Source: a virus
Strand: one strand, 5' to 3'
IMG/VR virus record: IMGVR_UViG_3300012984_000568
Location: 1 to 64,000 of that record
Length of the DNA stretch: 64,000 bases
The position numbers and the translations under genes were made by a program. The notes under the pieces are model-generated. The model was not told the origin of the DNA, made no database searches, and worked only from the letters and a program-made list of their open reading frames with translations. Positions 1 through 14,018 of this stretch are shown here, piece by piece (within the stretch, counting starts at the first letter, position 1; every line of letters begins with the position of its first letter).

Positions 1-1167
1 ATGAGTGAGTGGGGGGTAGTGACACTTTCGAGCGAGACATGGGCTCCGTCGCGGCACTTCTCGATTCCCGTTCCACGGGCAGCGCCGGTTCGTTACACCG
101 GGCCCATGGTCCGTCTTGGCGACGTTGTCGATTTGGTGAGCGCAGGAAGTGGGCAGCGACGAGACGAACCGGTTGTCACCCCGAGCGGTGTGTCCCCACG
201 ATCGGGTGCCGTGCAGCCGCGCGCGCACGCGCCGACAGGGCCAGTCTTCAGACTGGGTCAGGGGCTACTCCCCGGGGACATCCTCGTTCCCCTGATCGGA
301 AAAGGACCGTGCGTATTGGCGGTGCCAGAGCACGCGGGCCTTGCCTTTTCTCGTGGTTTTGCGGCCGTGCGGACAAATGGGCAGCTGGCCCCAGCAGTGC
401 TTTGGGCGCTGCTCAGTTCACGTTCAGGGGTCGAGGCGAGGCATGCGCTGGACCGCGGCGCGATCGTACCGAGACTTTCAGCAGTCATGCTCACCGAGGT
501 GCTGATCCCGATGATTCCGCTCGCCGCCATTCCGTCTGTTCAACCGTTGTTGCCAAATCCTGCCGTTGACTGCAGCGGCATCGACGTGGTTGCGAGTCTT
601 TGGCGAGTTGTCTCGATGCGGACGGCTTCGAGTTGGGAGCCGACGCGACTGCTTGATCCTCTGAATGAGACCGGCAGCGTGCTGATCGCCGAACTCGGCA
701 AGGTTTGGGCAGGGCGCCTGGACGCGAGCAAGTTCAAAGAGGGGCCGTTTCCTGGCGGGACGCCCGCACTGCGGCCGAGCGACGTGGGCAGATTGATGAC
801 GCCCCGCTGGTGGGCGGAAGCTCAAAGCAGCGACGTCATCAAGCCGGAATCGATCATGGTCGGCGCGCTATCGGCGCGCGTCGCAACCTCGGAACAACCA
901 GTCGCCATCGCGCGGGACGTCCTCGTCGTCGACATTCTCACTAGACCGACCCTAAACGCCGCGGAGGTCCGGGACCGCGTCGTTGCCTACCTAAGCAGCG
1001 CACTTGGGCAACGTCGTCTCTCGCTGCAAAAAAAAGGCCTCATTCCGCGTCTGTCAAAGAAGAACTTCTTGCAAGTGAGAATTCCCGCGCCCGAGCAGCT
1101 TCCAGCGACGAGTCCCTCAGTGACGGAGCTACTCGAGACCAGCTTGGAGCGGGCGCTGTGGAGCTAA
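1..1167 (+). CDS. Type I restriction-modification specificity subunit-like protein (two TRD-like halves; may be 5'-partial)
   Basis: HsdS-like motifs VRLGDVV, LLPGDILV...G, GAIVPRLSAVMLTEVLIPMIP, with a second copy GLIPRLSKKNFLQVRIPAP. Confidence 0.65.
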   Translation: MSEWGVVTLSSETWAPSRHFSIPVPRAAPVRYTGPMVRLGDVVDLVSAGSGQRRDEPVVTPSGVSPRSGAVQPRAHAPTGPVFRLGQGLLPGDILVPLIGKGPCVLAVPEHAGLAFSRGFAAVRTNGQLAPAVLWALLSSRSGVEARHALDRGAIVPRLSAVMLTEVLIPMIPLAAIPSVQPLLPNPAVDCSGIDVVASLWRVVSMRTASSWEPTRLLDPLNETGSVLIAELGKVWAGRLDASKFKEGPFPGGTPALRPSDVGRLMTPRWWAEAQSSDVIKPESIMVGALSARVATSEQPVAIARDVLVVDILTRPTLNAAEVRDRVVAYLSSALGQRRLSLQKKGLIPRLSKKNFLQVRIPAPEQLPATSPSVTELLETSLERALWS

Positions 1168-2039
1168 CGATCGCGTACATCGACCAAACCCTGACTCCAA
1201 CCTACGGCGTGATCGGGGCGGCGTACGAACTGCTTCTGGAATCGACTGATGACGCGGTAGACGATGCGTTGGGAAAGCTGGACGCCACGCGCGCTGATTT
1301 GGCAAGAGTTGCCAGGCGTTGTCTGGACCTGCGACGCTTTGAAGCGAACGGACCGGCCGGGTTTGATGCACTTTGCGTCCTCACGTTCATTATTGGCAAT
1401 TGGGGCCGCGATTCTGGCGCGAACCGCGCGGGATTCGAGTTCGAACTGAGGCGAGAGGCGACCAAAGCCGGCGACAAGCCGCTCTATGTACCTTTCTGGG
1501 TTCCCTCGGTGGCAGGGATAAATCAGACAGACCTGCTTTTCCCAATAGTTGCGGCGAAACGAACACGCGCGCTTCGAGCGTACGAGGGCCTAGTCCACCA
1601 TTTACGATCCTTAACCGCCGACGCTTCGGAGGTTGCACTAACAGCCGTCCTGTGGCGGGTCGCCGCACTCAGCGACGGTCTGGCGCGGGACAGTGGCGGC
1701 ACAGCAGCGCGATTCAATGCGTTGCGGTTCCAAGTGGCGCAAGATCCCACAATTTCCGACCACGAGAAGCGACTCTGGAACCCGCTTACGACACGCTTCG
1801 TCCATAGCCGTGATGCGCTAACGCACATGATTTGCGAACGCGAAGGCGTCGTGCATGAGGTGTTCGAAACCGCAGTCGAATATGTCTTAGCGCAGCGTCA
1901 CGGGCTTGTCCCGGCGGCATCAGCGCTTGGGCTTGCTGTTTTGCAGGAGATTGCCGTCCACCTGTCCGACATGGATGCTCCGACCGTAGAGTGGGAACGG
2001 GTTCAGAGAGAACACCTGTGGATCGACGATCAGGCATGA
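1158..2039 (+). CDS. Hypothetical helical protein with a HEPN-like RxxxxH motif
   Basis: GTG start overlaps the upstream gene end; 293 aa; motif SRDALTH in the C-terminal half. Confidence 0.5.
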   Translation: MELTIAYIDQTLTPTYGVIGAAYELLLESTDDAVDDALGKLDATRADLARVARRCLDLRRFEANGPAGFDALCVLTFIIGNWGRDSGANRAGFEFELRREATKAGDKPLYVPFWVPSVAGINQTDLLFPIVAAKRTRALRAYEGLVHHLRSLTADASEVALTAVLWRVAALSDGLARDSGGTAARFNALRFQVAQDPTISDHEKRLWNPLTTRFVHSRDALTHMICEREGVVHEVFETAVEYVLAQRHGLVPAASALGLAVLQEIAVHLSDMDAPTVEWERVQREHLWIDDQA

Positions 2040-2067
2040 CGGTTTGGAAGCAAGGGAGAGCTCCCGC

Positions 2068-3669
2068 ATGGGATATGAGGTGACCACCGCGTGGATCCTT
2101 CCGCCCAGAGACATCACCGGCGAAGACCACCTCGCCCTGCGCGCGGTCGGTGAGGCGATCTACACTGAGCTGGTTCCCTGCGTCACCAACGTCACGGAGC
2201 GAATCCGCCACTACACCTTCTTCCCATGGTTCACTTGGAAATTCGCGCGCGAGAGGCGCGATGCTGACTACGACGAATTCGTGCGCTTGTTCCGACGGGC
2301 CGAGTGCTTGAATACCTTGATTGGCGCGCACCACGAGACCGGCGGCTCATCGGAGATGCACGGCGCAGGTCTCGCGGGAAGAGGGACGCTGCTCGATCCG
2401 CTTCGCGACCTCGGAAGTGGATCGCTCAGGCTCTCGACCTACGCAGACCCCGGGATTGACGGAGCGGAGCGTTACTTCAAAGCCCAACTCGGCGGGCTCG
2501 ATCAGTACTACCGCGGGACGCTGCAGAGCCTCGACGTCATGGGCGGCAACCGCCAGAGCGGATTGAAGGTCACCCCAAGACGCGGCGTTCGGCTCGCTGA
2601 GGCGTTCGACGCAGGGGTTCCGGGTGATCTGTTTTGGGACACCGTCGTTCGAGACGAGGTGTCCGCGAAGCGTCTCGATGAACTGTCGGCGTTCTGCCCC
2701 TGCCAGCTCGAGCATCAACAAAGAGAGGTCAGCTCCATTCTCGACGTACTATTGAATCGGGACCGAGCGGCGGACGTGCCGGACATGCGGGACGCCGTGC
2801 GGTTGGTCTGCGATTTCCTGGCGGCACAAAATACAACGGCCGAGCGCGGCGCAATCGTATGGGACTTCCGTGAGAGCGCCTATGGGGGGGTGGTTGCGGG
2901 CGGCGCGTGGATTGACCCAGCTCTTCCCAAATGGGCTGCATACCATCGTCATGAGTTGCTCAGCGTGGCGGTGCAGTCGTTGTTTTGGGCGGTATTCCGA
3001 GCGGTCGAGGACGCCGACGCCGGCGGCCAGCTTCCGGTCCTTCACTCCAGCAGCCGGGTCGCCGAATGGTTCATAGGCCGCCACGAGGCGGATCTGGGCG
3101 AGCTCGATCTCACTCGCCCAGTACTCAGCGTCTTCGAGCAGGCGATGAACGAGCTCCCGATACAGGAGGCGATCGCGGACGAGGGACATGAACTACGGCA
3201 GGCCCAACGTCTCATGGCCGAGGAAGAGATTGGGCCCGCGACTGTGGGCGCGCTCAGGCTGCTCACATCCCTGATCGCGCGAATGTCCGATGAGCCACCT
3301 TACGGAGGGTTTGGACGAGAAGAGGCGTATTTCACGGACTACCCCGTCAATCTACGAACCCTGCGCAGCTTCGCTCGCGGGAAGTGGCAATCACTCACAA
3401 TGAGGGATTGGCTGTCCTGGCTCGTGACGCACTGGTGCGTTGGTCACCACCTCCGGGTTGCGTTGCGAAAGCTGCATGCGCAAGGGATCGACACGTTCCG
3501 CCTTCGCCCAACCGAGCTTGGGCTTCAGCCGATCAGAAACATTGACGTAGGCTACGGCAATCCTCGCCTCGACGAGACCCTTCGGGCGCTCCGCGACCTA
3601 GGAATGATCAACGCACAGCACCAGCTTACGCAAGCTGGTGAGCTCCTTCGAAAGGAGCTGCATGGCTGA
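2068..3669 (+). CDS. DUF6361-like defence-associated protein
   Basis: N-terminal EDHLAL...ELVPCVTNVTERIRHYTFFPWF motif, central YFKAQLGGLDQYY, C-terminal wHTH-like LRDLGMI...LTQAGELL; GGGAGAG RBS before ATG 2068. Confidence 0.55.
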   Translation: MGYEVTTAWILPPRDITGEDHLALRAVGEAIYTELVPCVTNVTERIRHYTFFPWFTWKFARERRDADYDEFVRLFRRAECLNTLIGAHHETGGSSEMHGAGLAGRGTLLDPLRDLGSGSLRLSTYADPGIDGAERYFKAQLGGLDQYYRGTLQSLDVMGGNRQSGLKVTPRRGVRLAEAFDAGVPGDLFWDTVVRDEVSAKRLDELSAFCPCQLEHQQREVSSILDVLLNRDRAADVPDMRDAVRLVCDFLAAQNTTAERGAIVWDFRESAYGGVVAGGAWIDPALPKWAAYHRHELLSVAVQSLFWAVFRAVEDADAGGQLPVLHSSSRVAEWFIGRHEADLGELDLTRPVLSVFEQAMNELPIQEAIADEGHELRQAQRLMAEEEIGPATVGALRLLTSLIARMSDEPPYGGFGREEAYFTDYPVNLRTLRSFARGKWQSLTMRDWLSWLVTHWCVGHHLRVALRKLHAQGIDTFRLRPTELGLQPIRNIDVGYGNPRLDETLRALRDLGMINAQHQLTQAGELLRKELHG

Positions 3670-6109
3670 GGGCCTCGGCCTCCTTCAGGAGCTGAAGAAC
3701 GGAAGTTACCAGGCGGCCATCCTCGGTTCCTACAACGTCAGTTTCCCGTTCTTCGAGCAAGTGGTCCTGCGAGCGCTGCGCAGCCACGGCAGTGACCACA
3801 ACGTTCTGTTGATGGATGCTGCTCAGTGCGCAGCATGCCTCGGCGATGACGAGCTCGCACCTCGTTCTGCAGGCCGCCTCTACGCGCTCGTCCCTGTCGC
3901 TGCCCCCGGAGTCTTCCATCCCAAGTTCTTGCTGCTGCTGGGCAAGCGGCAATCGAAGCTCATCCTCGGCAGCCACAATTTGACCCTGAGCGGGTTCGGC
4001 TTGAACCGAGAGATATCCAACATGATCAGCATCCACGACCGTGAGTCGGAGGGTATCGGAAGGGCGGCCTTCGATTTCGCTCTCGCTTGGGCCGGCACGG
4101 CAGCGGGCGAGGTTGCCGAGTTGGTCGAGGCAGCACGAAACTGGGCGCCGTGGCTTGCAGGCAAGCGCGGCGCGAGCTCGGAGGTGGCCGCGCTTGGAAC
4201 CTATCCCATTGGTCCGTGCCTTTGGGACCAGCTGGAACCACTTCTGGGCAATGGCGTCTCGAGGATCACCGTGCTTGGTCCCTATTTCGACAATGGGATG
4301 CGCTTCATCACAACACTCCGAAATTATTCGGATGCGGAACTCGTGGTGGCCATTCACCCGGAACACTCGCAACTTGACCCTGTAGTGGCGAAGCGCCTAC
4401 CGGGTGTGTCATTCAAGGATCTTTCGTCCTGGCAGGGAGACCATCCCAAACGCCTCGTTCACGCAAAGGCGATCCATTTTGTGCTGAAGAACGGCGAGTC
4501 GGTGTTCGTGAGCGGCAGCGCCAACCCAAGCGCCCCGGCATGGCTTGACGCGGAGCGCCGCAACGCGGAGCTAGTGGTCGTTCGATGGCTACCCAAAGGT
4601 AACGTGCTCGCCGACCACCTCGGCATCACTTCACTGAGAGATTGCCCTGATGTCACGGAGGCTGTCTGGCAAGCAATCGATGGTCGCCGTGCCTCGGAAA
4701 CAGAGCGTGTCGATGCCAAAGGTCAACGGGCGTGGGTTGCGCTCGAGAACGAGAATGGGTTCACCGTCGAATCGAGCTTCGCTGGCCCCGACACGCCGGT
4801 CGCCGTGCTGGATGCTGAACGCGTTGAGCTCCTGCAGACCAAAGTCACTTCAACGGTCGACTCGCGCCGCATGATCGGGGCTACGGACAACGAGGTGCGC
4901 CAACTAGCAACGTACCTGGAGGTCAACGACGGGGCTGGCGTTCGTCGCGCCGTTGTTCAACACCTTCACGAACTACGTGATCGCGCGACGAGCAAGGAAC
5001 GGCGCTCCCTGCGCAAGGCGCTCATGGATCTGGATATGGCCGACGAGGGCATCGACGTCTACATGGCGGTGATCGAGAAGGCCATTTTCGACGGCGAGCC
5101 CGCGCCTCGACAGCGAGCAGGGCGAACGGGCCTGCCACAGAAGCATAGCGCCACTCCTGAAGGTTCAGTCGGTGTGGGTGAGCTCGAGAAGAGGGGTCGG
5201 AGAAGACCGCGCCTAAGCACAGGCGACGTCGGCGTCGTGCTTGACGCACTCATCCATAAACTCGGGGAAGGACTGCCCGGTGTTTCGGCCGCCGCTGCGC
5301 GCATCAGCGAGGAGCAGGTCGACGAGCACACCGAAATCGCGATTCCGCGGACCCGTGCAGAACAGCGAGCGCTAGCGCAGCGTTGCCGATTGAAAACTCG
5401 CAAGTTGATTCGACGAATGCTCAAGCGGTTGGAGCTGGCGTGGAACGAGGAAGCCGAGCCGTTCGCTGTGGCCGTGCAGTTCGTGGCCTGCCTCGGTTTG
5501 CTCCACCGCATTAGCGAACGTCAGGCCAAGTTCGAGTGGCTCCCTGCCGGAGGCGAATTGGTCGAGACCGAATGGCTGTGGAAATTGTTCAAGCGGGCTG
5601 CCGTCGTCGGGTTCGCTCCTCGCCACGGCGCTAGGACAGCGTTGGAGGCGGAGCATGGCGAGTTCTCGGAATTGGCATCCGCGGCGGCGCTGACGCTCTG
5701 GTCAGCCTGGACCACCGGGCTGGACCTGGGCACCGCCATGTCCACCCAGGCTGTCGAGGACGAAGAGCAGGAGGAGAATCTGACCGGTCTTTCCCTGCTG
5801 CTAAACTGCTTGGACCCAAACCTCATGCCCGACGATGAGGAGCTGGCGTACCTGTTCGGTGAGGACGGGCGCGCCTGGCTGGATCGGCACATGAAGTGGG
5901 CGAGCGCCATCCGGTCTTCTTCGTCGGCGAAGGGCGCCGCGAGGCCAGGCAGCGTCGTTCGCTTCCTGCTGGGCGGCGATGTCGAGCTGGGTGTCGTGGT
6001 GAAGACGCTCGATGGCAAGGTCGAAGTCATGGACAGGACGACGGGGGCGCTTCGGCGATATGATGCGAGCGCAGTAGAACGCCTGGCGCTGGAGTTGCTG
6101 CGGACATGA
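3662..6109 (+). CDS. Phospholipase D-superfamily nuclease with two HxK motifs and a long helical C-terminus
   Basis: VFHPKF...ILGSHNLT and LVHAKA...VSGSANPS; AAGGAG RBS; start overlaps the upstream gene end. Confidence 0.8.
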   Translation: MAEGLGLLQELKNGSYQAAILGSYNVSFPFFEQVVLRALRSHGSDHNVLLMDAAQCAACLGDDELAPRSAGRLYALVPVAAPGVFHPKFLLLLGKRQSKLILGSHNLTLSGFGLNREISNMISIHDRESEGIGRAAFDFALAWAGTAAGEVAELVEAARNWAPWLAGKRGASSEVAALGTYPIGPCLWDQLEPLLGNGVSRITVLGPYFDNGMRFITTLRNYSDAELVVAIHPEHSQLDPVVAKRLPGVSFKDLSSWQGDHPKRLVHAKAIHFVLKNGESVFVSGSANPSAPAWLDAERRNAELVVVRWLPKGNVLADHLGITSLRDCPDVTEAVWQAIDGRRASETERVDAKGQRAWVALENENGFTVESSFAGPDTPVAVLDAERVELLQTKVTSTVDSRRMIGATDNEVRQLATYLEVNDGAGVRRAVVQHLHELRDRATSKERRSLRKALMDLDMADEGIDVYMAVIEKAIFDGEPAPRQRAGRTGLPQKHSATPEGSVGVGELEKRGRRRPRLSTGDVGVVLDALIHKLGEGLPGVSAAAARISEEQVDEHTEIAIPRTRAEQRALAQRCRLKTRKLIRRMLKRLELAWNEEAEPFAVAVQFVACLGLLHRISERQAKFEWLPAGGELVETEWLWKLFKRAAVVGFAPRHGARTALEAEHGEFSELASAAALTLWSAWTTGLDLGTAMSTQAVEDEEQEENLTGLSLLLNCLDPNLMPDDEELAYLFGEDGRAWLDRHMKWASAIRSSSSAKGAARPGSVVRFLLGGDVELGVVVKTLDGKVEVMDRTTGALRRYDASAVERLALELLRT

Positions 6110-6348
6110 AGCGCTCCCTGACTCTTGCCCCGCCTGCGCCAATTCAGGTCAAGTCCGTGGTACGCGCGCGCCCTGAAGTTGCTGAGCTGGTTTGGACTGT
6201 ATTACGCCAATACTTCGCCGCGATGTCGGCGCCGTCGACGCGCCCTCCGTACCGAAACCGCTGCCGCGGACGGATATCGACCTGCACGCGTCAGTGTTCG
6301 ACCTCGACCGCAGCTGATGCAATGCATGTTCGCGATCCGGGCTCCACG

Positions 6349-6377
6349 AGTGGCGGGGTAGCGGGACTCAAACCCGC
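6349..6377 (-). repeat. Degenerate tRNA-like 3' end, candidate distal att site of the small element
   Basis: Minus strand GCGGG-TTTGAGT-CCCGC-TACCCCGCCAC (T-arm plus acceptor-like 3' strand), loosely similar to the core at 10094. Confidence 0.4.
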
Positions 6378-6429
6378 AAGCGGTACAAATTGCCGAAGTT
6401 GCCATGAGGCGCTGACCTTCCTTCGCGAT

Positions 6430-7155
6430 CTAGACGGTTACGGCGCGGGCCTCGTGCTCGAGCATCGGCGTCCAATTCGAAACGTAGGTCGTCCCGCCGT
6501 TCCCATCCCGCAGGGCGAAGCGGACGTGCTCCACGCCACTGCTGTGTTGGCGCTCAACGTGAGCACGCTCGCTCGCCAAGCACGCTGCGCACGCCCGCAC
6601 GCGAGGCTCCTGGCCGCAGCCCATGCACGTCACGGGTCGCACGGGATGGGTGGCTGGCGCGCTCTGGGACCGCTCTGCCGCTTGGGCGCGGAGGGAGGCA
6701 AGCTCGCCAGCAGTGATTGTAACCTCGTCACGAAAGTCGCGGTACTGGGCGACCAGGGCCTTGACGGTCGCGGGCGCCACTGCGTGGCGTTTGACGATCT
6801 CGATCGGCGTCGCTTCCGCGTCCAATTCCCTAAAAACGAGCGCGGCGATGTCACCAGCCGCACCGCCGAGCTCGGAGATTGTTGTGCGATGGCGCAGTGT
6901 CGTGATCGTGCGCTTGACCTCAGTTTCATCGAACACGTGCACGCCGTCGATCACCTGTGCGCGAAGCAAACCGGCGCGCTCGCGCCGCACCACGGTCGAT
7001 GGGCTCACGCCCATCAGCGTCGCGACCTCAGTGCGCGTCAGTCGGCGTGCAGTTGGCGCGTCACCTGTCTCGACGGTGACAACCTCGGCAACCGCCACCT
7101 CATCGTTCACGGGTTCGCTATGTGTATAGGCGTTTTCGCCTAGATCGGCGGTCAT
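6430..7155 (-). CDS. HTH DNA-binding protein (MerR/HTH_17-like N-terminus, CxxC..CxxC C-terminus)
   Basis: LTRTEVATLMGVSPSTVVRRERAGLL; CMGC...CAAC. Confidence 0.65.
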   Translation of the reverse strand: MTADLGENAYTHSEPVNDEVAVAEVVTVETGDAPTARRLTRTEVATLMGVSPSTVVRRERAGLLRAQVIDGVHVFDETEVKRTITTLRHRTTISELGGAAGDIAALVFRELDAEATPIEIVKRHAVAPATVKALVAQYRDFRDEVTITAGELASLRAQAAERSQSAPATHPVRPVTCMGCGQEPRVRACAACLASERAHVERQHSSGVEHVRFALRDGNGGTTYVSNWTPMLEHEARAVTV

Positions 7156-7276
7156 GGAAGATCCCTCTCATCGCAAAGATAGCGAGCCACGACGAAATGG
7201 CGAGCCGCTCCTGCGAAATCTTGCGGCTCAGCTGTCGGTCCTTGCCGAACGTTCGCGGAGGTGTACGGTCGTAGCC

Positions 7277-8290
7277 ATGCCCTCGCCGGCTCGAATTCGC
7301 AAAGGTTCACCGCCGTTCAACGCACCGGAGCTCGGAAGGGTTCTTGCGCGAATCGCCGAAGAGATCCGCTTGGCCGTTTGCGCGGTCGACGGTGCATTGC
7401 GAGCTGAGTTTGACACGAGCGAAGCTTCGCTCGCCGACCTTCGAAAAACGCAGCCACACGTGCAGCTTCCCAAGGTGCCGTACTGCTGCAAAGACCCCCA
7501 TATTCGCATCCGCCATGATCACGAGATGCTTTGCATCCGGTCCCCGCGCATCGCTGAAAAGCTGGACAAACTTGCGCAGGAGTTGCTCGGGCCAGATGCG
7601 CCGGGTCTCGCGATTTCTGCCTTTGATTTGAGGCCTTTTCCCAAGGCCGCTCGCCCGATCATTGACGCTCGAGCTTCATGCGAGGCGATTGTTGGTGAGG
7701 CGTGGAAGCGTGGCTATACGCCGTTCCAGGACGGTTCCGCCGACGTGATGTCTGTGGCTTGCGTGCTCACTGGGTCGCCGTGTCCCTTCGGCATAGCACT
7801 GCTCTCACTCTCGAAGATTGTAGAAACACCTACGCGGAGGGCGGTCAGGGACCTCGCTGACACGTTGTACTTTACTGGCTCGCGGCTACATTGGATCGCC
7901 GCGCGTATCGCCGACTGCGGGAATGTAGCGGGATTCGCGCAAGCGGTCGCGGGGCGTCTGCGCGAACTGCAGCCGTCACTACAAATGCTCGATGCTCAGA
8001 TCCGGGACGTATGTCTCTTTGACCCGACACCGCGTGGGCGCCGCTCGCGCGATATCGTCTTCCAAGAGGTCGTGTGCGCGTTGGCGAACGAAGGCTTCAG
8101 CGACGCGGAGATCGCGTGTCTCATCGTCGCGAACAAGGCACGGAAACCCGGTGTCTGGCGAAAGCGAATTGCCGACCACCTCGACCACGCAGCTAATCGC
8201 GGCTTTGGAATACCGCCGGTCAACCGCTTCGCCACCTCGTTTAGCCTTGGGTTTCCGTCGCATCTCGAGACCCTGAAGCAGCTCAACTGA
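7277..8290 (+). CDS. Hypothetical protein of the small integrative element (start uncertain)
   Basis: Long ORF upstream of xis-int; C-terminal PRGRR...EGFSDAEIA HTH-like segment. Confidence 0.5.
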   Translation: MPSPARIRKGSPPFNAPELGRVLARIAEEIRLAVCAVDGALRAEFDTSEASLADLRKTQPHVQLPKVPYCCKDPHIRIRHDHEMLCIRSPRIAEKLDKLAQELLGPDAPGLAISAFDLRPFPKAARPIIDARASCEAIVGEAWKRGYTPFQDGSADVMSVACVLTGSPCPFGIALLSLSKIVETPTRRAVRDLADTLYFTGSRLHWIAARIADCGNVAGFAQAVAGRLRELQPSLQMLDAQIRDVCLFDPTPRGRRSRDIVFQEVVCALANEGFSDAEIACLIVANKARKPGVWRKRIADHLDHAANRGFGIPPVNRFATSFSLGFPSHLETLKQLN

Positions 8291-8377
8291 TCAGTCGCGT
8301 GCCCCCCCATTCTGGGGTGCTACCTTGCGGACCTATCGCTCACGATGGCTTCATGCAGTTCACGAAAGGAAGCCATC

Positions 8378-8638
8378 ATGCCGAGTCCGTATCTGCTACT
8401 GCAGGAAATTGCCGAAGAAACGCGGACGCCTCTGAGCACCGTCCGACACTGGATCGCAACCGGGAGGCTGCCGAGCGTGCGGCCCGGGCGGCGCCGACTG
8501 GTCAGACGCGCGGACCTTGACGCGTTCCTGGCCCCGCCCGCCAACGACACAGTTGCCGACTCGGGTGCGGCGGTCCCGAGCGAGCTCGACCGCCAGCGTG
8601 CTTCGAAGGCATGTCGCCGCTTGGGGCTGCAGCCATGA
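8378..8638 (+). CDS. Excisionase-family HTH_17 protein
   Basis: YLLLQEIAEETRTPLSTVRHWIATGRLPSVRPGRRRLVRRADLDAFL; AAGGA RBS. Confidence 0.85.
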   Translation: MPSPYLLLQEIAEETRTPLSTVRHWIATGRLPSVRPGRRRLVRRADLDAFLAPPANDTVADSGAAVPSELDRQRASKACRRLGLQP

Positions 8639-8907
8639 ACCACGAGCAGCCGATTCACGCCTCCGAGGTACGCCAAATGCTGCGCGACGGCACGCTGATT
8701 ACCCGTGCCTCAGCTGAAGGGGCGCACGACATGGAACACGACGAAGTCCTTACCCTTCGTGATGTAGCAAGGTTGCTGCACTTCGAGCGACACACCATCA
8801 AAAAGCTGCTCGATCTCGGACTTCCGTCCCATCGCGTGGGTTCGATGCGCCGGTTTTTGCGCTCTGAGGTGCTTGTCTGGCTGAAGGCTCAGAAGGAGAC
8901 CAAGTAA
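8635..8907 (+). CDS. Excisionase-family HTH_17 protein
   Basis: EVLTLRDVARLLHFERHTIKKLLDLGLPSHRVGSMRRFLRSEV; coupled to int (TAATG). Confidence 0.8.
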   Translation: MNHEQPIHASEVRQMLRDGTLITRASAEGAHDMEHDEVLTLRDVARLLHFERHTIKKLLDLGLPSHRVGSMRRFLRSEVLVWLKAQKETK

Positions 8908-10280
8908 TGGCCGTCGTCCCGCGAAAGACCAAGACAGGAACCACCTATCGGGTCACGGTTCGAGACGCCGAGGGGAAGCAATTCTGGGAACCCGCCGGGT
9001 CCGATCGCCGCGCCGCACAGTCGCTCGAACGCAAGCGGAAGCGCGAGGTGCGCGACGGCACTTTCGCGCGCGGGAAACGGCCGACCATGCCATTCGGTGA
9101 GTTCCTCGCGGCGTGGGGGAAAGATCGCCGCAACCGCAACGCAGACGACGACCGGCGAATCATCGACACCCACCTGTGCAGCCGCCCGTGGCTAGCGAAT
9201 CTGCCGTGTGAAGAGCTTCGCCCGCTACACGCCGAGCGACTCGTACGTGAGTTGCTCGAAACCGTGAGCTCTCAGACAAGTCGCGCGCTCGGCGAAAAAT
9301 ACGTCTCGAATATTTACGGCCTCTTCCGCACGGCGTGCAGCGACGCCCGCCGACAAGAGCTCATGTTCGTCGACCCGTGCATCCTGCCGCGCGGCCTTCT
9401 GAGTCGGAAGCACCGCCGCGGAACGCGGCAGCCCTACGCCATCGAGAACGTGACGAAGTTGATCGGCCTACAAACCGAGGCGGGCGTCTTCGCCGCGTTG
9501 GCGCTGCTCACGGGCATGCGCGAGGGTGAGATCTGCGGCCTCCGATGGCGCGATGTCGACGAGGAGGTCAAGACTCTGGGCTGCATCAAGCTCACCTCGC
9601 AATACGACGGTCAGCCCCTTAAGACGGAGCGAGGACAGGGCGAGCACTCGCGGAACATCCCGATCCACCCCGAGCTGGGCCGCAAGCTCGCCTGGTGGCG
9701 CAGCAAAGGCTTCGAGCTCACAAACTGTCGCAAGCCGGGCCCCACAGACTTCATCGTCGCTCGCCGAGAGCGCGGAAACCTCGAGCGGCTCGTGAACCAC
9801 ACCAAGAAGAGCGGCGCCAAGCTCTGGGCGCGTGCCTGCCGTGAGGCCGGCGTCGAGAGCCAGACCCTCCACGCCACCCGCCACACCTTCATCACGCTCG
9901 CCCGCCGCGCCGGCGCCCGAACCGAGGTGGTCGAACGCATCACGCACAACTCGTCCGGGACGATCGTCGACCACTACACTCATTGGGACTGGGAGCCGCT
10001 CTGCGAGGCGGTCCTCGCAATTCGGCTCCCAGAGCCCGTTGCCAAAAATGTTGCCGCGCTTGCGGCGCGGCCCATTTTTTCCGTTCAAACAGAGTGGAGG
10101 CGCCGGGAATTGAAGTCGGTTCCTCAAGTAGTCCCGCGGGCAATTCTACGTCAATCCGTGGAATTGCAGCCTGATTTCCGGACGCGGTTTCCTGCGCAAT
10201 TTCACCGGTCAGGTGCAGACTTGGCCGCGCGTCAAAGTCGGGGCCGTTTGGGGGCGGAGAATCGAACAGCGAGCCGATAG
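8907..10280 (+). CDS. int: Tyrosine recombinase/integrase of the small element; ORF reads through the att core
   Basis: TGMREGEI, LHATRHTF, ITHNS, VDHYTH catalytic motifs; EWRRREL is the antisense tmRNA 3' end translated. Confidence 0.92.
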   Translation: MAVVPRKTKTGTTYRVTVRDAEGKQFWEPAGSDRRAAQSLERKRKREVRDGTFARGKRPTMPFGEFLAAWGKDRRNRNADDDRRIIDTHLCSRPWLANLPCEELRPLHAERLVRELLETVSSQTSRALGEKYVSNIYGLFRTACSDARRQELMFVDPCILPRGLLSRKHRRGTRQPYAIENVTKLIGLQTEAGVFAALALLTGMREGEICGLRWRDVDEEVKTLGCIKLTSQYDGQPLKTERGQGEHSRNIPIHPELGRKLAWWRSKGFELTNCRKPGPTDFIVARRERGNLERLVNHTKKSGAKLWARACREAGVESQTLHATRHTFITLARRAGARTEVVERITHNSSGTIVDHYTHWDWEPLCEAVLAIRLPEPVAKNVAALAARPIFSVQTEWRRRELKSVPQVVPRAILRQSVELQPDFRTRFPAQFHRSGADLAARQSRGRLGAENRTASR

Positions 10281-11358
10281 CGAGCACGGCGGCGCACAGC
10301 TCGGACCAGTCGCGGTGCGTGTAGCGGTCCACGATGTCCCCCTTGGCGTTGTGCGTCACCTTGGAGACCACCGCTTTGTCGCCCCCACCACGGCGCGCCA
10401 GCGTGATCATCGTGTGCCTGGTCGAGTGCAGGGTCTTGTTTGGGATGCCCGTCACCTTGAGCGCCTTCCGGGTGAAGAGCTTCGAGAAGCTCGACTTGGT
10501 ATGGTGCGGCGCCCTGGCCCACCGGCTGACATTGGGTACGATGTAGTCCTCGGGGGTCGGGGCTCGGCCCATCAGCTGAACGAACCCGACTCGAGCCCAG
10601 TGCTCCAAGATGCGCTGCAGGTCAGGGTGCACGGGCACCACGCGGCGCTTCTTGGTCTTCAGCGCCCGCCCGCCGTATTGGGTCCCGACCTCAAGCGCCC
10701 AAAGTGGGGTGGGGGCTTGGTCGAGGTCGCTCCAACGACGCCCGCAGGCCTCGCCCTCGCGCATGCCGCCGAGCAGGCAAAGGGCCAGGAGCACGCGGAT
10801 CGGCTCCGGGATCTTGTGGTGCGAAACGAGCACCGCTGTCTCGGTACGCGTGTAGGACTCGCGTTCCTTCGGGTCTTCGTCCGCAAAGTAGCCGCGGGGC
10901 AGCACGCACGGATTGGCCGTCACGAGTTCGGCGATCTGCGCGTCGCGGAACATCGTGTTCAGCGCGCCGTACGAGTTCTGAAGCGACTTCAGCTTCACCT
11001 TGCCGGCAATCTTGAGCTGCTCGAGCGCGGCCATGATGTGACGCGGCCGCACTTCCTCGATCTTGAGGCCGGCGAACTCTGGCAACGCGAGAAAGCGGCC
11101 GAGGTTGCGGCGATCGTCGGGTGCCGAGATGTTGCGGCGCGCGGCGCCCCACGTGGTGCCGTACTCAGCAACGGTCGGCTCGGCCGTCTTTTGGTTCGGG
11201 CGAAACGTGCCCTGCTTCACCTCGCGCTTGCGTTGCTTGTCGAGGCGTTGGGCTTCGCGCTTGTCGGTTCCGGAGCGCTCATTGTACGCAGCGCCCTGGA
11301 ACCAGGTGACGACGTAATAAGTCGTCACGTGCTTCCGCTTCTTGGTGACTACAGCCAT
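9940..11358 (-). CDS. int: Prophage tyrosine integrase; ORF reads through the att core
   Basis: GGMREGEA, LHSTRHTM, VTHNA, VDRYTH; clearly homologous to 8907-10280. Confidence 0.92.
   Translation of the reverse strand: MAVVTKKRKHVTTYYVVTWFQGAAYNERSGTDKREAQRLDKQRKREVKQGTFRPNQKTAEPTVAEYGTTWGAARRNISAPDDRRNLGRFLALPEFAGLKIEEVRPRHIMAALEQLKIAGKVKLKSLQNSYGALNTMFRDAQIAELVTANPCVLPRGYFADEDPKERESYTRTETAVLVSHHKIPEPIRVLLALCLLGGMREGEACGRRWSDLDQAPTPLWALEVGTQYGGRALKTKKRRVVPVHPDLQRILEHWARVGFVQLMGRAPTPEDYIVPNVSRWARAPHHTKSSFSKLFTRKALKVTGIPNKTLHSTRHTMITLARRGGGDKAVVSKVTHNAKGDIVDRYTHRDWSELCAAVLAIGSLFDSPPPNGPDFDARPSLHLTGEIAQETASGNQAAIPRIDVELPAGLLEEPTSIPGASTLFERKKWAAPQARQHFWQRALGAELRGPPRRAAPSPNECSGRRSSRTSCA
10094..10114 (-). 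repeat. att core: 3'-terminal fragment of tmRNA (ssrA) or tRNA-Ala at the element/prophage junction
   Basis: Minus strand TTCAATTCCCGGCGCCTCCAC = T-loop, T-stem 3' strand and alanine-type acceptor strand; the rest of the gene is absent; lies between two integrases. Confidence 0.8.
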
Positions 11359-11651
11359 CAGCTCGCCTTCTTTTTTGCGCGTTGCTGCTCCAAGTACGAT
11401 TTCAAGTCGCTCACGTAGAAGCGCAGCAGCGAGCCGATTTTGAACGAGGGGATCTCGTTCTCGCGCGCTCGCTTTCGGAGCACTTCGACCGGCATCTTGA
11501 GGAACGTCGCGGCCTCTTCGCTCGTCAGCACCTCAGGCGGCAGCGACACGAGCGCGCTTTGCGCGAGCAGCGCTGCCTTGACCTCGGAGCGAACGAGCTC
11601 CGCGAGCTGACCGGCAGTCATGGTCACCATCATCATTTTCGGATCGGTCAA
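11358..11651 (-). CDS. xis: Excisionase-family HTH_17 protein
   Basis: EVLTSEEAATFLKMPVEVLRKRARENEIPSFKIGSLLRF; coupled to int. Confidence 0.85.
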   Translation of the reverse strand: MTDPKMMMVTMTAGQLAELVRSEVKAALLAQSALVSLPPEVLTSEEAATFLKMPVEVLRKRARENEIPSFKIGSLLRFYVSDLKSYLEQQRAKKKAS

Positions 11652-11911
11652 GCTGCTCTCCTCGCTGCCAGCTGCGCCAGCACGGACTCGCGGGTGTCAC
11701 CTTCGCGCCACGCTTGTGCGTCGACCTCGTCAATGCCGACGGTGGGCGACTTGCCATCAACGCGGGGGAGCAATGCGCGCACCTTCGACACGCCTTCGAG
11801 CACCGCGCGCAAACGCGTCGCGGCCGTCACCACGGCGAGCGCTTTCACTCGCTTGCGATGCCAGACCCACCAATCAATGGGCGCGAGCTGTTCTTCGGAA
11901 GCGTTCTGCAT
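11648..11911 (-). CDS. Phage hypothetical protein
   Basis: Stop overlaps the xis start; in operon. Confidence 0.55.
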   Translation of the reverse strand: MQNASEEQLAPIDWWVWHRKRVKALAVVTAATRLRAVLEGVSKVRALLPRVDGKSPTVGIDEVDAQAWREGDTRESVLAQLAARRAA

Positions 11912-11918
11912 CGGTCCC

Positions 11919-12377
11919 TCAAACGGCTTTTCGAAGTGGTTCTTGCCAAACGCCGAGTTCGTTCAGCTCGGCCCAAATCGCTCGCAGGCGCTCGCACTCT
12001 TGCTCTTGGAACGTGAGCCGCTGGGCGGCATCGAAGTGCGCGAACACGCCTTTGCCGGCGTGGAATAGGTCGTGATGCCTGCGGCACATCGGCAGCAAGA
12101 AGCGGTCAGGCGCGGTCTGACCCATGCCCTTGCGGGCGTCACCCTTGCCGTCGATGAGGTGGTGCGGGTCGGCCTTGCCGCAGCGCTTGCCACCCACACA
12201 GCAGGGGAGCGTTTTGACCCACGCCTTGTACGCGGGTTCGTCGCCAGGCTTCGGGCGGCGAGCCTTGCGCTTGAACGCAGTGCGCTTGAGTTCGCACACG
12301 CGAGCCAATGGCTTGGCCGCGAGCAGCGAGCTCGTGGAGCGCAGAGGCGACTTGCGGCGCAAGGGCGTTCGCTTCAC
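11919..12377 (-). CDS. DUF968/Ref-like His-Cys nuclease-family phage protein
   Basis: YKAWVKTLPCCV..ADPHHL..GMGQTAPDRFLLPMCRRHHDLFH. Confidence 0.75.
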   Translation of the reverse strand: MKRTPLRRKSPLRSTSSLLAAKPLARVCELKRTAFKRKARRPKPGDEPAYKAWVKTLPCCVGGKRCGKADPHHLIDGKGDARKGMGQTAPDRFLLPMCRRHHDLFHAGKGVFAHFDAAQRLTFQEQECERLRAIWAELNELGVWQEPLRKAV

Positions 12378-12505
12378 TTCCACCCCACAACGAGGTGATG
12401 CCACAAGCATCCGAAACCGTGCTCAACGCCCAAGGCGAGCAGGGCACCGACTATCGCGAGCAGAACGATCGCGCGTACGTAGTCCTTGTCGCTGGGCCCG
12501 TACAT
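12374..12505 (-). CDS. Small membrane protein (43 aa, not in the ORF track)
   Basis: MYGPSDKDYVRAIVLLAIVGALLALGVEHGFGCLWHHLVVGWK; TGATG and GTGA overlaps with both neighbours. Confidence 0.6.
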   Translation of the reverse strand: MYGPSDKDYVRAIVLLAIVGALLALGVEHGFGCLWHHLVVGWK

Positions 12506-12957
12506 CAGCCGACCCCCAGCTGCCGTACCCAGCGGCGCACCTGCGACAGCTCACCGCCGCGCTTGCGGCTCGGCCGGTCCCACGACTCCTCGCGCGTCAG
12601 GCCGTCGTCGACGAACCCAGCCGCGCGCAGGGACGTCCCAGGCTCGTCCAGACGCGTGTACGTGCGAGCCTGCGTGTAGCCGATGCTGCCTGCTGCTCGG
12701 CACAATGCGCCGTAGAGCTTCGAGCACGCATTCTTTCTGCCATCCGTAGCGCAGCGCGTGATCTCGACGATGCGCCGCCCGCGGAGCGCCGGCGCCTTGG
12801 GCTCGCTCGCCATGGCCACGCCGGCGAGCTCGTCCCCGACGTAAACGGCCGATGCGAACAGCCCGCCCACGACCTTGGGCAAGTGCCGGTGCAAGAGCTT
12901 CACCTGCTTGCGCGCGCCCGTGATGCTCAGCGGGCGAAGCTCGAGCCGCTCTCCCAT
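12505..12957 (-). CDS. XF1762-family / Mom-like GNAT-fold protein (putative DNA modification)
   Basis: LELRPLSITGARKQVKLLHRH..GVAMASEP..EITRCATDGRKNACSKLYGA..YTRLDEPGTSLRAAGF; GGAG RBS before ATG 12957. Confidence 0.8.
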   Translation of the reverse strand: MGERLELRPLSITGARKQVKLLHRHLPKVVGGLFASAVYVGDELAGVAMASEPKAPALRGRRIVEITRCATDGRKNACSKLYGALCRAAGSIGYTQARTYTRLDEPGTSLRAAGFVDDGLTREESWDRPSRKRGGELSQVRRWVRQLGVG

Positions 12958-13322
12958 TTGGACTCCAAAGGTCGACGCCGGCTGCGCCGAAGCGCTTCCC
13001 GTCTGCATGACGGAGCACGCGGGCCGGCCAACGCTCGCTGTTCGGTTTTTGTGGTCAGCCGAGCCCCAAGGACTTCCACCCTGGTTCCGGGTACGGAGCG
13101 GGCTCCACAACATTGGGCGGACCCAAGAGTTTCGCTGACGCTCCTGACCGTTGCTCGACGCTGTCTCTCCAGCTGTCAAAGTGTCGACTGTGCACACCGC
13201 TCGGGCCATCGAGCATTGGGACCGTGGTCCGTGCCCGGTTTGGCCTTGTTGCGCCACCCGCGATTGGTCGCAGCCGTTACTGACTACGAATGTTGCCGTT
13301 TTTGCATCCGCGGCCGACACTG

Positions 13323-13394
<72 letters not shown>

Positions 13395-13568
13395 ATAAGC
13401 CAGCGGTACGGCGCACACAGCCGCCGAAGCAGCCTGCCTTGGCACCCCACGATCGCGCCGCTGGCAGCACGCTCGTGTCGCTTTGCATCAACGCTGACTC
13501 ACCAATGTCTTGGGTGAGCCAGCTCCGCTCAGCGATATAGGAGTTCTTTCGCCCCTCAAGTGCGGGGC

Positions 13569-13646
13569 TGGGCGCGCGGTCAGGGGTCGAACCTGACTTG
13601 CCGTGCACGGCGTTCCCATAGCGAACCTCGCGGTTCACTCGCGCGC
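13569..13646 (-). ncRNA. tRNA-like RNA (acceptor stem, T-arm and CCA; non-canonical D and anticodon region)
   Basis: GCGCGCG...TCAGG-TTCGACC-CCTGA-CCGCGCGC-CCA, with internal GTGAACC-GCGA-GGTTCGC and GCCG-TGCA-CGGC hairpins. Confidence 0.55.
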
Positions 13647-13859
13647 TTGGCACTGACCCGTGCCACGGAGTCTCGTAAATTATCTGCCCAATATGGGCGC
13701 TAGAATCAGCTCGGTAGGTTTGATGGCTCTCGTGGTCGCAGGCACTCACGCACGAGGCTTTCACCTCGACCGCCGCATGGCTTCCTCCCTTGGAGCATTG
13801 CGAGATGCACGCCGTGACGATAGCAAGCCGCACAACGAGCATCCAGAACGAGAGCGCCT

Positions 13860-14018
13860 TCATTTGGCGTTACCTTTCTGCGGGTAGACGCACACGTCGA
13901 AAAAACCGACCTGCCAATCGCCGCCAGTCGATGAGCAGCGCTCAGCGCGGTACTGCTCGATGCACTCGATGGTGACGATGCCGAAGAGCAACGCGATGAG
14001 CGGGAAAAAGAACTTCAC
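13860..14018 (-). CDS. Small membrane/secreted Cys-containing protein
   Basis: VKFFFPLIALLFGIVTIECIEQY..RCSSTGGDWQVGFFDVC; AGGAGG RBS; coupled overlaps. Confidence 0.55.
   Translation of the reverse strand: MKFFFPLIALLFGIVTIECIEQYRAERCSSTGGDWQVGFFDVCVYPQKGNAK

Follow-up and report, generated by a model that had tools for sequence, protein, structure and literature searches.

Why two homologous integrase genes should run towards each other and both remain open through one and the same attachment (att) core is the question raised by the locus described here, which lies near the left end of a 64,000-nucleotide stretch of viral DNA (the window hereafter). The window comprises positions 1-64,000 of the 84,372-base IMG/VR provirus record IMGVR_UViG_3300012984_000568, and the source contig of that record, 100,763 bases in length, continues past it; coordinates below are those of the window unless the record or another locus is named. 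We propose, at a probability of roughly 80%, that two integrative elements, here called A (a small island, left) and B (a tailed prophage, right), stand head-to-head at a single ssrA, the gene for transfer-messenger RNA (tmRNA), and that their integrase genes, intA and intB, belong to the Mx8 family and cross their own attP.

Both genes are present in prophage form and encode Mx8-like tyrosine integrases, intA (8907-10280, plus strand; 457 aa) being of the type with the core in antisense (A-type) and intB (9940-11358, minus strand; 472 aa) of the type with the core in sense (B-type). Each product belongs to the tyrosine recombinases (Pfam PF00589; E 1.3e-14 for IntA and 1e-11 for IntB), and the two share 39% identity over 417 aa (BLASTP, E 1e-79) in an alignment that includes the motifs by which a preliminary description of this DNA had called them homologues. 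The residues R200, H311, R314, H336 and Y346 (IntB numbering) are invariant in an alignment of 25 sequences containing both proteins, and the best phage match of IntB is the Mx8 integrase (28% identity, residues 2-358, E 5e-30; tblastn). Upstream of each int stands a gene for an excisionase-like helix-turn-helix protein of the HTH_17 family, the stop of which overlaps the int start by 1 nt: the xisA-like gene (8611-8907, plus strand; PF12728, E 4.7e-8) and the xisB-like gene (11358-11651, minus strand; PF12728, E 1.8e-10), with homologous products (E 3e-6). Element A carries a further, first HTH_17 gene (MerR/excisionase-like; 8345-8638, plus strand; PF12728, E 5.7e-11; PHROG 66, excisionase/regulator), and its conserved module reads HTH_17, HTH_17 (xis), int, at 8338-10115. 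The open reading frames (ORFs) of intA and intB converge and overlap by 341 bp (9940-10280), as had been described and as the ORF coordinates confirm. Within the overlap lie both C-terminal extensions and the end of the IntA catalytic domain (~28 codons). In intA, the conserved part ends at ~10025, and the ~84 codons after it cover a hairpin, then the core, then sequence antisense to the intB linker; in intB, a conserved part (11358-10273) is followed by a linker/P arm (10272-10115), the core and 50 foreign codons (10092-9943).

The place where the two frames meet is a piece of ssrA. The shared att core (10093-10114, minus strand) is a 22-bp identity block that covers the tmRNA from its T-loop to the discriminator base and 2 nt more; the sequence TGGAGGCGCCGGGAATTGAA is single-copy in the window (0 expected by chance) and has a second copy in the record, on the same strand, at 84256-84274. 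Comparison of the flanks defines a 22-bp direct repeat made up of window 10093-10114 and record 84253-84274. The frames are open across a tmRNA-type core in opposite orientations, as previously noticed, but the limits of that core are 10093-10114 rather than 10094-10114. The right copy runs on into a minus-strand tmRNA gene (RF00023, 46.2 bits, E 9e-17, model positions 264-374; Rfam). The direct repeat and the tmRNA body at its right copy thus place the limits of prophage B at 10093 and 84274, a length of ~74 kb; the search for a tmRNA at the other prophage end, a check set beforehand, thus found the ssrA body at the 84274 end of B. Judged in the manner of Islander, the cores of B lie on the same strand with intB between them, the right one being joined to the tmRNA body and ssrA cut by the record end. 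The core at 10093-10114 is a displaced ssrA 3′ fragment, serving both as attR of B and as the ssrA-side att of A. At the ssrA-distal end of prophage B stands intB, transcribed in the ssrA direction. The left 54 kb of B occupy 10093-64000 (minus strand) of the window, and the prophage extends to record 84274 beside ssrA; it encodes a tail sheath, baseplate hub, tape measure, major head protein, protease and portal, and by this gene content it is a complete-looking, myovirus-like tailed prophage. Candidate arm-type repeats of the form CGCGSCCAA are not enriched in the rebuilt attP of B, where 75 of 100 shuffles reach the observed count.

In an assembly made from a metagenome, and with a core common to many elements, two genomes might have been fused by the assembler at these shared 22 bp. 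This is scarcely credible, given that a repeat of 22 bp is shorter than assembler k-mers, that the same geometry is present on other contigs and that an independent 10,202-nt Logan contig bridges the junction (~3170-13371), evenly covered and with 0 differences, so that a single assembler cannot have produced it as an artefact. The sample behind that contig is probably the same as the source sample. No alternative joints were found in the Logan contigs compared, a result that is uninformative on excision.

Relatives of the two integrases come from metagenome-assembled genomes (MAGs) of Polyangiaceae, Polyangiales and Myxococcota and from soil metagenomes, and the loci comprise 21 with the core in sense and 29 with the core in antisense. 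The nearest relatives are from Polyangiaceae MAGs, and the host would seem to be a soil myxobacterium of Polyangiaceae type. Nearly all IntB homologues carry the translated core in sense, ~60 residues past the catalytic tyrosine, and all three frames are used (SIPGAS in 48, QFPAPP in 16 and NSRRL in 2), whereas IntA homologues carry it in antisense, ~40 residues past the tyrosine, in the forms WRRRELNPGPRG (the intact ssrA body translated in antisense), VEAPGIE and GGAGN, the last of which belongs to a frame that meets a TGA inside the core. A complete tmRNA lies beside many of the antisense-core ints (ARAGORN or Rfam), and 14 of the 29 antisense loci have a core that passes on into the ssrA body. 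On a tree of 166 integrases (FastTree; sequences trimmed 22 residues past the tyrosine; polarity labels from peptide motifs), the polarity label changes 3 times, as against 27-40 times in 200 label shuffles; one clade, that of IntB, gathers 60 of the 66 sense tips, and IntA lies in a sense-free clade. The Mx8 integrase has its tRNA core in antisense, like the A-type. Taken together, the A-type and B-type integrases appear to form sister clades of Mx8-like integrases with opposite core polarity.

Such opposite polarity would account for the arrangement at this locus. First, a sense core within the gene, as in the B-type, would leave int at the ssrA-distal end, reading out through the displaced core. 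Second, an antisense core, as in the A-type and in Mx8, would leave int adjoining ssrA and converging on it. One element of each polarity at one site would then yield the order xis-int, core, int-xis in mirror image, irrespective of which element arrived first; given two clades of opposite polarity and one shared target, the mirror geometry would result of necessity.

The layout in which int spans attP appears to be the rule among these relatives. Through the core, the int frame stays open in 21 of 21 sense and 28 of 29 antisense loci (49/50), as in Mx8, compared with 13 and 7 of 21 for the control frames of the sense loci and 9 and 6 of 29 for those of the antisense loci (35/100 in total); at these counts the read-through is conserved and the analogy with Mx8, which had been drawn from this locus, holds. 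The tails beyond the core are conserved as well. The B-type tails include the subfamilies '..AFxVALAEHPGAxPPARPPAKTRPVGYVARKRG', '..NRRRKRRLLSLxEADPxAAAPGLAxCRALDAAY..' and '..WGLALAAERVL..', each common to proteins that read the core in different frames; 53 of 63 post-core tails have a homologous partner (E < 1e-3), with 81 of 243 pairs being of different frames, and the A-type tail '..IPxSAAxHCAGQExPT..' is found in all three antisense frames. The tails are therefore coding, since nothing would restore the frame if they were DNA signals only. An AlphaFold2 (AF2) model of a natural attP-form B-type integrase, P0056 (29-sequence alignment), predicts the integrase body with confidence, leaves the linker that holds the core-encoded SIPGAS (372-435) disordered and gives a confident three-helix module (437-504) coded entirely past the core; in the one subfamily modelled, the tail is thus predicted to be a folded three-helix module.

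The rebuilt attP allows the C-termini of IntB to be compared between its two states. Past the right core copy, the IntB frame (locus L002, 1327-1500, minus strand) continues for 57 residues, TETERELSDDSETRQSTRTSES...EAWGLVFAAHKVGVLPEVG, and ends in a TGA that overlaps the next ATG. Searched with a hidden Markov model (HMM) of the WGLA tail subfamily, this far-end tail ranks first among 1,228 sequences, 1,226 of them decoy window frames (E 0.001), and the prophage-form IntB tail, in the same 1,228 sequences, gives no match; the tail at the far end, but not the one in the prophage, therefore matches a conserved subfamily. The native tail of IntB thus seems to be encoded at the far prophage end, and in the prophage state its 57 residues are swapped for 50 coded by element-A DNA, being the antisense of the hairpin and of the intA catalytic-tyrosine region. 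Conversely, the post-core tail of IntA is the antisense of the IntB linker, and in close relatives at an intact ssrA it is the antisense of ssrA. The earlier statement that each prophage-form tail is coded by the DNA of the partner element is literally true from the ORF extents. Database entries are mixed in this respect, some representing the attP state with the conserved tail and others the prophage state; in two of the latter (L003 and L005), the ORF passes from the core directly into a strong intrinsic terminator.

Directly after the rebuilt attP-form intB follows a small gene (L002 1109-1327, minus strand; record ~83864-84082) that has no Pfam match and whose ATG overlaps the int stop (TGATG). 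The overlap suggests translational coupling of int and the small gene in the excised form only. A separate arrangement is seen in L003 (11205-12060), where two ssrA cores, separated by 814 bp, lie beyond a B-type int and each has the same strong terminator after it; between the cores lies a two-gene cassette, toxin-antitoxin-like by eye, which would be a mini-islet bounded by att cores.

Based on these findings, we propose that integration would cut each int at the core and replace its native, conserved tail by whatever lies across the junction, which here would be DNA of the partner, leaving both genes as IntX-like prophage alleles. In Mx8, attP lies within int and integration makes a new 3′ end, changing the behaviour of the enzyme (PMC6070905); by analogy, we infer that an integrase deprived of its native tail is less active, or acts differently, in the lysogen. 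If so, it would be incidental which tail took its place, one coded by the partner or one coded by the host.

The preliminary description had gone further and suggested a coupled recombination-state switch, in which the activity of each integrase depends specifically on the presence of the partner, through the tails and through antisense transcription. The prophage-form tails are indeed partner-coded, the read-through is conserved, tail exchange alters activity in Mx8 (PMC6070905), and the geometry recurs, as had been asked, in other genomes, namely on two unrelated metagenome contigs: L118 has a B-type int, the core and a convergent A-type int, overlapping by 54 bp, and L147 an A-type int, the core and a convergent B-type int, overlapping by 200 bp, with both ORFs crossing the shared core in each. 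However, the three head-to-head cases differ in their overlaps (341, 54 and 200 bp), their partner-coded tails are unrelated, and the B-type ORF of L118 stops 2 codons past the core. The partner-coded tails are antisense to variable linkers and not to conserved sequence, and conservation is restricted to the native, attP-form tails. Furthermore, head-to-head pairs make up 2 of the 25 internal junctions examined, 14 of the 29 antisense loci lie directly against the ssrA body, and most related loci are occupied by a single element next to ssrA or by a head-to-tail tandem. As opposite clade polarity alone predicts the geometry and the partner-coded tails are not conserved, nothing found requires such a switch, which we regard as highly improbable.

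One head-to-tail array is seen on JBMOMJ010000048.1, a Myxococcota MAG contig, where three A-type ints (L014, L011 and L017), each with an ssrA core, lie about 100, 73 and 9.9 kb apart in an array of ~185 kb at ssrA; only the first abuts a complete tmRNA gene, and the int of L017 is truncated.

Antisense transcription between the two genes, the other arm of the proposed switch, would be restricted by the DNA between their catalytic parts. A G+C-rich hairpin with T runs on both strands (10053-10071; terminator scan of both strands) lies inside both ORF tails, upstream of both stops (10278-10280 and 9940-9942); this bidirectional terminator-like structure separates the genes and should limit read-through. 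Its fold is only mildly better than that of shuffles (z -1.6/-1.7). The hairpin DNA codes for the peptide VAKNVAALAAR, which close IntA homologues next to an intact ssrA have kept, and the hairpin therefore belongs to A; plausibly it is an ssrA terminator supplied by A. If the hairpin works, the antisense transcripts would overlap by only a few tens of bases, and both messages would lack a stop codon.

The latter consequence raises an addition to the proposal of two head-to-head elements, namely that prophage int messages end at the terminator before the stop, so that Int would be tagged by tmRNA for degradation, with the attP form having a normal stop. The position of the hairpin upstream of both stops would fit with this, as would the B-type prophage-state genes of L003, L005 and L147, which have their stop at or after the terminator T run, and the rebuilt attP-form IntB stop, which overlaps the ATG of the next gene; mycobacteriophages, moreover, sense integration via ssrA-like tags together with an attP inside the gene (PMC4557955). 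Nevertheless, with only 7-15 codons from core to terminator, absence of a stop is the chance expectation, the B-type ORF of L118 does stop (2 codons past the core), the hairpin fold is unexceptional (z about -1.7), and in the A-type the conserved native tail lies past the hairpin and would then be reached only by read-through; such non-stop control is in our view unlikely. Very unlikely is the extended form, in which the junction would be a regulatory device, both integrases would be made from non-stop messages and tagged by the tmRNA of the very gene invaded, and the Int supply would report ssrA occupancy, with arrival or loss of the partner shifting the end of each ORF and its antisense exposure.

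For element A, the question is whether it is still an element of its own. Left of its module stand genes for a 241-aa HTH protein and a 378-aa protein of no known family, most of its cargo genes have no Pfam or PHROGs match, and no DNA similarity of A to other loci was found outside the HTH-xis-int module (8338-10115). An orphan fragment resembling a tRNA 3′ end, GCGGGTTTGAGTCCCGCTACCCCGCCA (6351-6377, minus strand), comprises a T arm, acceptor strand and CCA, occurs once in the record and is unrelated to the ssrA core; it lies between a PLD-gene block (1-6109) and the int module of A. The fragment may mark the boundary between a defence-like block and the int module, or the scar or boundary of a third element. 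It is possible, though we doubt it, that A is a decayed int module left beside ssrA, that only B is live and that the overlap is inconsequential for A: the record is without a distal ssrA core for A, the orphan tRNA-gene-like fragment at 6351-6377 is an unrelated one, A has no recognisable replication or structural genes, and the int of a relative is truncated in L017. Against decay, intA is full-length, keeps every residue invariant in the 25-sequence alignment, including the catalytic tyrosine, and resembles neighbouring genes in its G+C content at third codon positions (GC3), and both HTH_17 genes are intact; in addition, the end of A may lie further left on the 100.7-kb contig, as the record starts at a gene boundary.

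Several points weigh against the proposal that two Mx8-type elements stand head-to-head at one ssrA. On the side of A, a second ssrA core was found neither in 1-9000 (up to 4 mismatches, blastn-short) nor elsewhere in the record, and the native tail of IntA would be expected at the left end of A, which was not located within the record. On the side of B, ssrA is visible as its 3′ 121 nt only, since the record ends there; the match of the IntB native tail to its subfamily is weak (15.7 bits), and phmmer comparison of the phage-form and prophage-form IntB tails with homologue tails gave no hits. The polarity tree is a FastTree tree only, with orientation labels derived from motifs, and Mx8, with an integrase only 28% identical, is the source from which the effect of losing the tail is extrapolated.

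Other features of the window were noted beside these subjects. Two overlapping genes at 2044-6109 (plus strand), encoding proteins of 541 and 823 aa, lie within a four-gene block left of the int module of A; a PLD-like domain (Pfam, E 7.6e-7) was recognised in the 823-aa protein, which also matches PADLOC ZacB (E 1.3e-11), and these genes are possibly defence cargo beside the integrase module. Inside prophage B, 2 kb from intB, lies a tRNA-Met (CAT) gene (13322-13394, minus strand; ARAGORN; Rfam 64.7 bits), which is crossed by a 452-codon ORF (12505-13863) on the same strand. The provirus record begins exactly at an ATG (window position 1), so that this is probably where the host contig was cut by the provirus call, and ~10 kb of the record belong to element A and not to prophage B; the boundary call has merged two elements.

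Although the arrangement resembles that of Mx8, the correspondence is partial. Shared with Mx8 are an HTH excisionase-like gene overlapping the int start, a core from a tRNA or tmRNA gene within the int ORF some tens of codons past the catalytic tyrosine, with a long tail after it, and the exchange of that tail upon integration; pairwise comparison of the xis-like proteins, which are HTH_17 proteins, with Mx8 Uoi gave no significant similarity (E 0.04). However, Mx8 targets a tRNA-Asp gene and the elements here target ssrA, the opposite polarity of the B-type puts int at the end distal to the target gene (tDNA), reading into the former downstream region of that gene, and the relatives here are hundreds of uncultured Polyangiaceae-type sequences.

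Islander analysis has described integrase genes of Mx8 and SSV that extend across attP, tandem arrays at tDNAs, and the tmRNA gene as the most enriched target (PMC4383910). The present locus resembles such tandem arrays at tRNA or tmRNA genes in its ssrA hot spot, its displaced 3′ fragment with a regenerated gene, and the presence of several elements at one site (PMC4383910), but in the classical arrays the islands follow one another head-to-tail, each with a single fragment and a single int and all oriented alike, whereas here the elements are head-to-head with overlapping ORFs, owing to the opposite core orientation. SSV1 likewise has attP inside int (PMC4383910), but its int is split into two inactive halves, whereas here the catalytic part stays intact and the tail is exchanged. 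In the integration-dependent immunity of mycobacteriophages such as BPs, attP also lies in a coding sequence, integration changes the C-terminus and hence stability or activity, and ssrA-like tags take part (PMC4557955); the split gene of BPs, however, is the repressor and not int, and both integrase lineage and host are different. In the literature searched, an integration-rewritten bacterial int spanning attP is described for Mx8 only, with Mx9, placed beside Mx8 by a review, left out of account; neither this ssrA-targeting integrase family nor head-to-head integrase pairs are described in that literature, which is not proof of novelty.

In conclusion, this work extends the Mx8-type C-terminal exchange to a large ssrA-targeting family with two polarities. 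The findings suggest that the attP-spanning layout is the rule for this large uncultured integrase family of Polyangiaceae-type myxobacteria, and that, compared with the literature found, the family-wide layout, the conserved tail that is exchanged, the polarity-flipped sister clade and the head-to-head pairs that follow from the flip may be new. For annotation, gene callers cannot call both of two overlapping ints, and tools for provirus boundaries merge adjoining elements, which here added 10 kb. A coupled switch between the partners would be of interest if true. For the family as a whole, the conserved tail is carried by the excised form only, and its members provide many natural variants for learning how the exchanged tail sets the direction of recombination.

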